Assembly (NCBI RefSeq): GCF_026626665.1
Contig: NZ_JAPNKE010000002.1
Coordinates: forward strand, 1,549,204-1,613,203
Source of the DNA: Nannocystis pusilla
GTDB lineage: Bacteria; Myxococcota_A; Polyangia; Nannocystales; Nannocystaceae
Reading direction: 5' to 3'
DNA: 64,000 nucleotides
The first letter of the stretch is position 1. Every line of letters starts with the position of its first letter. This document shows positions 3,003 through 3,710 of the stretch, piece by piece. The notes below the pieces were generated by a model that saw only the letters and a program-made list of their open reading frames with translations, was not told the DNA's origin and did no database searches. The position numbers were made by a program, and so were the translations under genes.

Positions 3003-3710
3003 TCAGGCCGTGCGGCGCAGCTCGAGGCCGAGTTCGCCGAGCATGAGGGCGGCGGACAGGAGCAGGATCCAGGCGATCCAGCGGCGCAGGCTGTCGGGGT
3101 CGAGGTCGCCGGTGCGGCGGGCGCCGAGGTTGGCGCCGAGCAGGGTGAGCGGGGTGACGACCGCGAAGGCGGTGAGGTCGATCTGTCCTTCGAGGAAGGT
3201 GGCGACCCCGGCCGACAGCCCGGTGACGGCGCCGATCGCCATGTTGGTGCCGACGGCCACGGGCGGCGGGACGCGGGCGTAGCGGATCATGGCCGGCAGG
3301 CGCAGGCTGCCGAGGAGGAGGCCGACGAGGCCCGAGACCGCGCCGAGGACCGCGCCGACGACGACCTCGGCGAGGACGGCGAAGGTGCGCGAAGGGACAT
3401 GTTCGGAAGGACCGGCGGGCTCGGGCCGGCGGCGCAGCATGGCGGCGCCGGTGAGCAGGAGGACGCCGGCGATGGCGGCCTTGAGGAGGCGAGCGTCGAC
3501 GCTGCCGGCCCAGCGCGCGGTGGCGAAGGCGGCGACGGCCGAGGGCGCGCCGACGCTGGCGAGCAGCCACAGGCTGACGCGGCCGTCGCGGGCGTGGCGC
3601 CAGGTGCCGACGAGGGTGCCGGCGGTGGAGATGGCGAGGCTGGTGGCGGCCCCGGCGACGGGGCTGCCGAGGACGTAGACGAGGAGGGCCACCCGCAGCT
3701 GCCCGAGCAC
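3003..3710 (-). CDS. TauE/SafE (DUF81) family membrane protein, a putative sulfite/anion exporter.
   Basis: The 235-aa protein is highly hydrophobic, with two 4-TM halves rich in G/A/L (…GAVLGAVSGLVGLLLGS…, …LTLLGANLGARRTGDLDPDSL…) typical of the TauE family. The central loop RRRPEPAGPSEHVPSRT is encoded by an in-frame copy of the GGACATGTTCGG motif. Confidence 0.65.
   Translation of the reverse strand: MLGQLRVALLVYVLGSPVAGAATSLAISTAGTLVGTWRHARDGRVSLWLLASVGAPSAVAAFATARWAGSVDARLLKAAIAGVLLLTGAAMLRRRPEPAGPSEHVPSRTFAVLAEVVVGAVLGAVSGLVGLLLGSLRLPAMIRYARVPPPVAVGTNMAIGAVTGLSAGVATFLEGQIDLTAFAVVTPLTLLGANLGARRTGDLDPDSLRRWIAWILLLSAALMLGELGLELRRTA
3372..3395. repeat. Motif copy (plus a degenerate second unit) encoding the central loop of the TauE-like protein.
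   Basis: cgaagggaCATGttcggaaggaCCGG. Confidence 0.6.

Follow-up and report, generated by a model that had tools for sequence, protein, structure and literature searches.

At the left end of the 64,000-nucleotide stretch of Nannocystis DNA analyzed here (contig NZ_JAPNKE010000002.1, positions 1,549,204 to 1,613,203; the whole stretch is called the window below, and coordinates refer to it), an IucA/IucC-like gene, a TauE gene, and a gene for a 262-aa hypothetical protein each contain, in frame, copies of a short palindromic repeat that is primarily intergenic. The window has a G+C content of 72%, and its positions 1-13598 were collinear with a contig of Nannocystis sp. RBIL2 (L001/L003) at 94-97% nucleotide identity; identity to the N. 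pusilla record (L002) was 79-88%. Genes were mapped from the RBIL2 and N. pusilla records, from the phase of G+C content at third codon positions (GC3), and from Pfam. Copies of the repeat were scored by a position weight matrix (PWM) that was derived from array units and scanned across the whole window. The host genes and their copies are as follows.

1-615, minus strand: IucA-like gene, continuing beyond the window edge
201-219, minus strand: third, weaker unit in the IucA-like gene (PWM 12-13), encoding HRTCSE
415-448, minus strand: two tandem units, 14 bp apart, in the IucA/IucC-like gene (PWM 12.4 and 19.0), encoding LQDMSLRTCSL
3003-3755, minus strand: TauE gene (Pfam TauE, 7.5e-34)
3390-3410 (core 3393-3404), minus strand: CGAAGGGACATGTTCGGAAGG in the TauE gene (PWM 19.0, the top score of the window), encoding GPSEHVPS in the central loop
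4000-4788, plus strand: gene for a 262-aa hypothetical protein
4206-4224, plus strand: CGCGGGACATGTCCAAAAG in the 262-aa gene (PWM 16.6), encoding AGHVQK

The repeat is a 14-nt palindromic tandem-repeat family with a unit of roughly GAAG-GGRCATGYCC. With at most one mismatch allowed, GGACATGTCC occurred 19 times in the window against 2.0 expected, and spacings of 14, 28, and 42 bp from one CATG to another were found 21, 12, and 8 times, neighboring distances occurring 0-1 times. The consensus of 34 array units was GGRCATG-YCC followed by a spacer of ~4 nt that was often GAA-rich. Arrays of 2-6 units were found at ~11 places in the window, many of them just past a stop codon or separating two convergent genes (8632-8688, 17576-17657, 22858-22898, 37177-37265, and 40505-40575), and the unit density was about one per 1.4 kb. 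Units scoring at least 13 were ~16-fold rarer in coding sequence (CDS; 0.13 per kb) than outside it (2.04 per kb); 7 of the 30 such units lay within CDS, which covers 82% of the window. Outside the cultured Nannocystis clade and its near relatives the family was not found: the 14-bp periodicity was seen in all cultured Nannocystis species sampled, was faint in more distant Nannocystis metagenome-assembled genomes (MAGs) at the same locus, and was absent at that locus from Enhygromyxa and other Myxococcota. The window, RBIL2, and N. pusilla have their arrays at orthologous positions, GGRCATG being kept as the spacers drift, and all copies and arrays examined in the shared syntenic region were orthologous across seven species whose DNA differs by up to ~20%, a pattern that lends no support to the mobile motif that an earlier reading of the sequence (the original prediction) had entertained. 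Rfam 15 at its gathering threshold returned no family at the arrays or in-CDS copies, its sole hits in the window being two Sernc350 matches at 51-53 kb. The repeat family was not present in viral contigs, where four isolated, unrelated hairpins were found in lower-GC contigs, and no description of this repeat was found in the literature.

The copies in the TauE, 262-aa, and IucA-like genes are true members of this family, and by PWM score, GC3, and annotation the repeat is, as the original prediction held, not restricted to intergenic DNA. The maximum PWM score of 19.0 was common to two intergenic units (8637 and 27269) and two in-gene units (436 in the IucA-like gene and 3398 in TauE), and the unit at 4213 in the 262-aa gene scored 16.6. 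On either side of the TauE, 262-aa, and IucA copies a single shared frame had a GC3 of 0.95-1.0, which, together with the continuous genes annotated in the RBIL2 and N. pusilla records, places them inside genes. Flanks of GAAGG, as in the array spacer, were present on both sides at 436, 3398, and 23387 (the last in a lipoprotein gene discussed below). Exact 14-bp phasing was observed at 422/436 in the IucA-like gene and at 4895/4909/4937 in an NMT1_3-like gene; the TauE, 262-aa, and lipoprotein copies were single units. Four CDS sites scored at least 16, against 0.7 (maximum 2) when codons were shuffled synonymously in ~48 kb of CDS over 40 trials; one of the four (8637) became intergenic once its DUF1579 gene was trimmed to the annotated length, leaving three. 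Under a second-order Markov model, chance yields ~4-7 sites with scores of at least 10-11 on each strand. The family copies were conserved as DNA in the species that carry the family and were absent from relatives without it.

In the TauE gene, whose protein is 97% identical to that of RBIL2 and 86-93% identical to those of N. exedens, N. bainbridge, N. punicea/poenicansa, and N. pusilla, a copy had been predicted at 3372-3395; the copy is real, and these coordinates lie ~18 bp too far left of its unit. The encoded loop was hypervariable in a 30-sequence alignment, and relatives at 77-78% identity were of the same or nearly the same length and formed a graded series: L037 (78%) read GCC GAC GCC CCC GCC CCC TCG, with no motif; L038 (77%) read GCG CCT GTC CCT, a half site; and the cultured clade read GAA CAT GTC CCT. 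No gap fell across the motif codons relative to L037 or L038; L007, L008, and L018 were 2-3 codons shorter in this length-variable loop. The motif codons GGT, CCT, GAA, CAT, and CCT end in A or T in a gene with a GC3 of 0.96, and four of these five third positions were invariant in seven species. The codon beside the core swapped its amino acid and kept the motif base (GAA/GGA/GCA), and the TauE gene of N. bainbridge has the perfect palindrome GGACATGTCC.

The 262-aa gene repeats this pattern. Its product had been labeled RCK-like, for which Pfam and NCBIfam gave no support, assigning the protein no function; the predicted in-gene copy itself was borne out. The core GGA CAT GTC was invariant in seven species, and the codons around it altered the amino acid (A/E, from GCG/GAA, on one side and Q/H/R/E, from CAA/CAC/CGA/GAA, on the other). 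The unit was present in L037 as GGACATGTC and in L038 in a partial form, GCACATGTC (GCA CAT GTC); L007, L008, and L009 were without it and read GCG CGG GGG TCC GTG or similar at equal length.

The two copies read as RTCS in the original prediction for the IucA-like gene are the units at 415-448, to which the weaker copy at 201-219 is added. Within 415-448, GAC ATG TCC CTT C.. ACA TG was kept in seven species, and at equal length L007 had no unit, L037 and L038 had one, and the cultured clade had two. The single unit of L037/L038 was GGGCATGTCC or GGGCATGG, followed by GCA GGT CCC; the second unit differs from that stretch by three substitutions (GCA GGT CCC to ACA TGT TCC), with length unchanged, and stands exactly 14 nt downstream of the pre-existing unit. 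At 201-219, CGG ACA TGC was found in seven species and CGA or CGG ACA TGC in L037/L038, and the site was absent from L007 and L018 at equal length. Neither IucA site showed a gap in motif-less orthologues (L007 and others); alignment of the N-terminal part to solved NIS synthetases was too divergent for judging indels. Insertion into loops, proposed originally for these copies, thus finds no counterpart in the window, where motif-less orthologues were gapless at the 262-aa site and both IucA sites and, for TauE, relative to L037/L038.

Codon usage at the three genes set the motifs apart. A/T-ending codons were rare in TauE (9/250), in the 262-aa gene (8/262), and in the N-terminal part of the IucA-like gene (10/204), and in each they were concentrated in the motif codons (hypergeometric P = 9e-7, 4e-4, and 8e-7, respectively, all descriptive values). 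A/T third positions were invariant across the seven related species at 9 of 15 places inside motifs and at 1 of 12 outside (Fisher P = 0.014). The invariant cores and rare A/T-ending codons, standing beside codons that change the amino acid, point to a constraint or drive at the DNA level, and the comparison of DNA with peptide conservation that the original prediction had called for came out accordingly. A coding reason for the peptides at the TauE, 262-aa, and IucA sites was rejected, because the residues of outgroups differ there; the same residues in other codons in repeat-less genomes, which had been named as the mark of coincidence, were found only for the lipoprotein peptide. The in-frame copies of these three genes are not coincidental, and they lie in variable protein segments of real genes. 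The GHV and TC(S/P) readings of the palindrome also hold, DMS being its third frame. By these alignments, the in-gene copies were built in place by equal-length substitutions, including purely synonymous ones, in segments tolerant of change, and they have been maintained since then at the DNA level against the pressure for G/C-ending codons.

Left of the window edge, the central linker of IucA contains an in-frame array of 4-6 phased units in cultured species (L003 12080-12170; L004 12040-12140; L005 14230-14310). Measured from LGV.. to VCAALG, the linker was 51-81 codons long in cultured species versus 35 in the motif-less outgroup L018. Its units were translated with a 42-nt (14-aa) super-period, DMSxxTFPxxHVPx, and the linkers of N. 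bainbridge and N. punicea differed by exactly 14 codons, or three units. The Cys-encoding frame ACATGTCC (ACA TGT CC) was swapped in the linker for ACATTCCC or ACATATCC (ACA TTC CC or ACA TAT CC, giving TFP or TYP), a replacement that looks as if the protein resisted the motif.

Further sites in or over genes bear on how far the family reaches.

4891-4944, plus strand: array of 3-4 units over the annotated start codon and N-terminus (MFSRTWPIAPVLLGMFLQTG) of an NMT1_3-like gene
10377-10392, minus strand: claimed copy in an HExxH-like gene (GHRDMPRFE; PWM 12.7), a chance match and not a family member
22909-23847, minus strand: lipoprotein gene
23378-23397, minus strand: motif-like DNA (reverse complement GAAGTGCCATGTCCCGAAGG; weak PWM of 10.5) over EVPCPEG in the lipoprotein gene
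56316-56332, minus strand: candidate unit GGGGACATGTTC in the C-terminal tail of an HAD hydrolase gene (PWM 16.0), encoding SHEHVPE

The lipoprotein site had been counted as a motif copy in the protein, a claim that stands for the DNA and falls for the peptide: EVPCPEG was conserved among homologues down to 45% identity, and such wide conservation makes the residues ancestral. The codons, however, were GAA GTG CCA TGT CCC GAA in the window and in N. sp. SCPEA4 (GAG at the last position in N. exedens) versus GAG GTC CCG TGC CCC GAG in N. bainbridge, with two outgroups likewise using only G/C-ending codons here. Of the five A/T-ending codons in 216 codons of this gene, four lay in its 7 motif codons (P = 2e-6), and the site at 23387 has the family core by its flanks plus CATGTCCC. 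The motif was reached by four synonymous G/C-to-A/T changes, and this site is a family member at the DNA level only. The copy claimed near 10385 in the HExxH peptidase gene was not sustained: the site (10383) scored 12.7 and falls short of the family core, its codons all end in G or C, and its peptide GHRDMPRFEREWRRFV did not vary among the six genomes with the gene (the window and five species). Two sites not listed in the original prediction were the NMT1_3-like array and the HAD candidate. The units of the former were kept in seven species, with the residues between units varying; the latter uses CAT GAA CAT, and its EHVP peptide recurs in TauE and the IucA linker.

CATG reads ATG on either strand, and start codons, annotated or candidate, lay inside units at 4891-4944, 7862-7890, 2940-2955, and 11478-11492: those of the NMT1_3-like gene (4896 or 4938, two ATGs in frame and 42 nt, or three units, apart), the CAP-domain gene (7868), the AAA_16 gene (2949), and the HExxH open reading frame (ORF; 11486). 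RBIL2 annotates the NMT1_3-like start at the ATG of the first unit, and its NadE start also falls within a unit (L003 13772-13784). Start calls for the CAP gene differed between RBIL2 and N. pusilla (385 versus 254 aa), as the ATG in the CATG core explains. The spurious ORFs that the original prediction attributed to the motif have the same origin, as ORFs start in arrays, and annotation of these genomes must accordingly reckon with spurious ORFs and ambiguous start codons.

The neighborhood of these genes varied in other respects. A block of ~2.4 kb (611-2997) with three genes, one of them an AAA_16/STAND-like NTPase, separates TauE from the IucA-like gene; it was missing in RBIL2 (gap of 170 bp) and present in N. 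pusilla, an indel polymorphism within the genus. Upstream of its first transmembrane segment, the TauE frame (3710-3803) lacks ATG, GTG, and TTG alike, and the earliest such codon gives 235 aa; NCBI annotates TauE relatives at 250 aa, which implies an unusual start codon at ~3755. The NMT1_3-like gene was intact in RBIL2 (774 aa) and split in the window over two frames with a break at 6386-6398 (by tblastn, frame 3 to 6386 and frame 2 from 6398): a frameshift, a pseudogene, or a sequencing error.

Four of the intergenic arrays are given here.

8632-8688: 4-unit array, beginning 2 bp past the stop codon of the CAP-domain gene, between convergent genes (RNA fold of -37.5 kcal/mol, z = -5.3)
17576-17657: 6-unit array between convergent genes (z = -6.5 for one strand and -6.4 for the other)
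27262-27321: 3-unit array adjoining an N6/N4 DNA methyltransferase gene
40505-40575: 5-unit array between convergent genes

Pairing of neighboring array units gives very stable hairpins on both strands (z of -2.2 to -6.5, most at -3 or beyond); in-CDS copies fold weakly (z of +0.9, +0.9, and -1.6). The 8632-8688 array was positionally conserved in RBIL2 and N. pusilla. At 17576-17606, immediately past a gene whose end is at 17569, a 10-bp stem made by the first two units precedes UUUUU. Adjacent units alternated between GGGCATGTC and GGACATGCC at 17580-17645, 22877-22898, and 40524-40545; singly these are non-palindromic (G..T or A..C beside CATG), and mutually they are exact complements. Complementarity between units exceeded that within units by 7 to 2 in the window and by 13 to 2 at other loci, and such complementary, non-palindromic neighbors give covariation-like support for hairpins formed between units. 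The methyltransferase gene (27327-28562, minus strand; Pfam PF01555, 1.2e-13) directly adjoins the array at 27262-27321, and in N. exedens and N. bainbridge it is kept beside the lipoprotein locus.

Two other interpretations of the arrays were dropped. A strand polarity of units (GGRCATG 40 versus CATGYCC 17 on the plus strand), which had suggested a replication-oriented motif, was uninformative because the whole window is equally asymmetric (GGR 2933 versus YCC 1379; GAAGG 110 versus CCTTC 46); elsewhere, kinase paralogues gave one usable locus (L031) with one small array. CRISPR was rejected, since spacers would not fit into a 14-bp period.

In the reading that we put forward, and to which we give about an even chance, the copies were built by substitution under a family-wide drive at the DNA level, likeliest short-patch conversion, and the primary role of the family is at gene boundaries. 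The templates for conversion would be the intergenic arrays, which are very abundant (concerted evolution), and one dedicated unit-recognizing protein might also take part. Protein function would only filter where copies persist, as the depletion of units in CDS and the replacement of the Cys frame in the IucA linker suggest. At gene boundaries, paired units might serve as bidirectional terminators or as protectors of mRNA ends; single in-gene copies, which cannot form inter-unit hairpins, are probably by-products of the drive, or binding sites, and not terminators. Conversion is favored by the array-spacer flanks of in-gene copies, the in-register position of the new IucA unit, the synonymous shift toward the consensus in the lipoprotein gene, and the existence of single units that form no hairpin. 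A bolder form of this idea, which we think rather unlikely, would have the unit as the target of an active, genome-wide, sequence-specific drive that rewrites near-matches toward the consensus and extends arrays in the 14-nt register even across CDS; its agent could be a signal for uptake or recombination, or an enzyme that recognizes the hairpin or duplex and templates short-patch conversion. If true, this would be the first "motif that edits genes" of the uptake-signal kind in a myxobacterium, and one with phased arrays.

Several observations weigh against substitution-built copies with a gene-boundary role. The IucA linker array behaves as an in-frame insertion or expansion, and substitution is thus not the sole route by which units enter proteins. 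Several arrays lie over start codons or 5' ends (4896, 7868, 2949, and 11486), which a pure terminator role leaves unexplained; the array at 17576 alone has a U-tract, and a scan for consensus terminators and promoters flagged no arrays, its counts being at shuffle level. The inter-unit covariation count is small (7 versus 2 in the window). The species are related, so invariance across seven genomes does not amount to seven independent observations, and the motif codons were delimited after the motif had been seen, which makes the clustering P values descriptive. Outside the RBIL2-syntenic part, gene calls come from GC3 and Pfam only. No conversion event was seen directly, and individually selected binding sites would give the same pattern of substitution and synonymous conservation.

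Such binding sites are the main rival, and one that explains much equally well: a double-stranded-DNA-binding protein (a global regulator or nucleoid-associated protein) would sit as a dimer on the GGRCATGYCC palindrome, form cooperative oligomers at 14-bp spacing, and regulate the IucA-TauE-NMT1_3 neighborhood through sites selected one by one. It would account for the conservation at synonymous sites of single in-CDS units that form no hairpin, for the exact 14-nt register of the second IucA unit, for the clustering of in-CDS copies within ~5 kb around the siderophore-synthetase-like locus, and for the arrays on start codons or promoter regions. A 14-bp period, however, sets successive dimers on different faces of the helix, the complementarity of GGGCATGTC and GGACATGCC between units favors hairpins over binding to single palindromes, many arrays occupy promoterless gaps between convergent genes, and no candidate binder was identified; we regard this as a real possibility that falls well short of probable. 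A DNA uptake signal, or a different recognition sequence driven through recombination, accumulating by point mutation together with biased uptake and recombination where proteins tolerate it, appears doubtful. Its models are the uptake signal sequences (USS) of Pasteurellaceae and the DNA uptake sequences (DUS) of Neisseriaceae, which have 34-65% of their copies in ORFs, where these arise by point substitution in poorly conserved genes and residues and skew the local peptide and codon usage, and whose paired copies form hairpins at gene ends (PMC2817400). The Nannocystis unit resembles them as a short, lineage-specific motif, here restricted to the genus, present at roughly one per kb (about one per 1.4 kb in the window), shared by relatives at orthologous sites, forming hairpins at gene ends, and with substitution-made CDS copies at tolerant positions, as reported for USS and DUS (PMC2817400). 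The ~16-fold depletion in CDS is unlike the share of USS/DUS copies within ORFs (PMC2817400), as the phased 14-bp tandem arrays are foreign to both systems.

In-frame insertion of a small mobile palindromic element into loops, the leading idea of the original prediction, is very improbable for the window copies. It draws on the IucA linker outside the window, which with its 4-6 units is 16-46 codons longer than in outgroup L018 and differs by 42 nt (three units) between N. bainbridge and N. punicea, and on a TauE loop 3 codons longer than in L007 and L008. The 262-aa and both IucA N-terminal sites were nonetheless unchanged in length, as was the TauE motif relative to the closest outgroups; a 14-nt unit cannot enter without breaking the frame; the copies showed neither terminal repeats nor target duplications; and all copies were at orthologous positions. 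Rickettsia palindromic elements (RPEs), in-frame MITE insertions of ~100-150 bp (MITE, miniature transposable element with inverted repeats) that add a recurrent peptide to unrelated housekeeping genes (PMC10969869), share with the present family a palindromic repeat in frame inside unrelated genes and the recurrence of its peptide. RPEs add residues, whereas the window copies span 10-34 bp, replace an equal length, and have no flanking duplications. Repetitive extragenic palindromes and bacterial interspersed mosaic elements (REP/BIME) are likewise abundant, short, and mostly extragenic palindromes, frequent after stops and between convergent genes, with stable hairpins; the Nannocystis unit differs in being just 14 nt, in its direct tandem phase, and in its conserved in-gene copies. 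Pfam scans of window ORFs turned up no RAYT (Y1 transposase) domain, whole genomes not having been searched. The IucA linker array resembles a coding minisatellite in varying between species in frame-keeping steps with a 42-nt super-period, yet the unit is not a multiple of three and is primarily intergenic, and the window copies are single or double and substitution-made. Coincidence, or constraint at the protein level only, describes the HExxH site and the ancestral lipoprotein peptide and is compatible with the chance level of sites scoring 10-11 or more; as an account of the TauE, 262-aa, and IucA copies it is scarcely credible, being contradicted by their top-of-window scores, by the concentration and conservation of rare A/T-ending codons in the motifs, by nonsynonymous change around an invariant DNA core, and by the different residues of motif-less orthologues.

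In this family, a non-coding repeat imposes its sequence on proteins without insertion. The EHV, GHV, DMS, and RTC residues, and the runs of otherwise avoided codons, would be owed to a force acting on DNA and not to a need of the protein, and motif sites mimic purifying selection at synonymous positions in evolutionary inference. At about one unit per 1.4 kb, a genome of 12-13 Mb would contain thousands of copies. The graded series from no motif through a half site and one unit to two phased units makes the origin of the motif directly testable.

Elsewhere in the window, on the plus strand at 14427-17569, a Ser/Thr kinase ORF (14427-16898) overlaps a TPR ORF (15521-17569) in a different frame; the two may be a single kinase-TPR gene with a frameshift. 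Two tandem paralogues for type 2A encapsulin shell proteins (SrpI-like) with cNMP-binding domains lie at 50321-53172, and antisense to both are the strong Rfam Sernc350 matches (123.7 and 89.4 bits), which probably reflect conserved coding sequence and not a small RNA. Tandem repeats unrelated to the motif were reported by Tandem Repeats Finder (TRF) at 42442-42689, 54888-55533, and 59415-59560; they comprise a duplication of 121 bp with 98% identity, 96-bp repeats within a DUF4215 gene, and a repeat of 58 bp.

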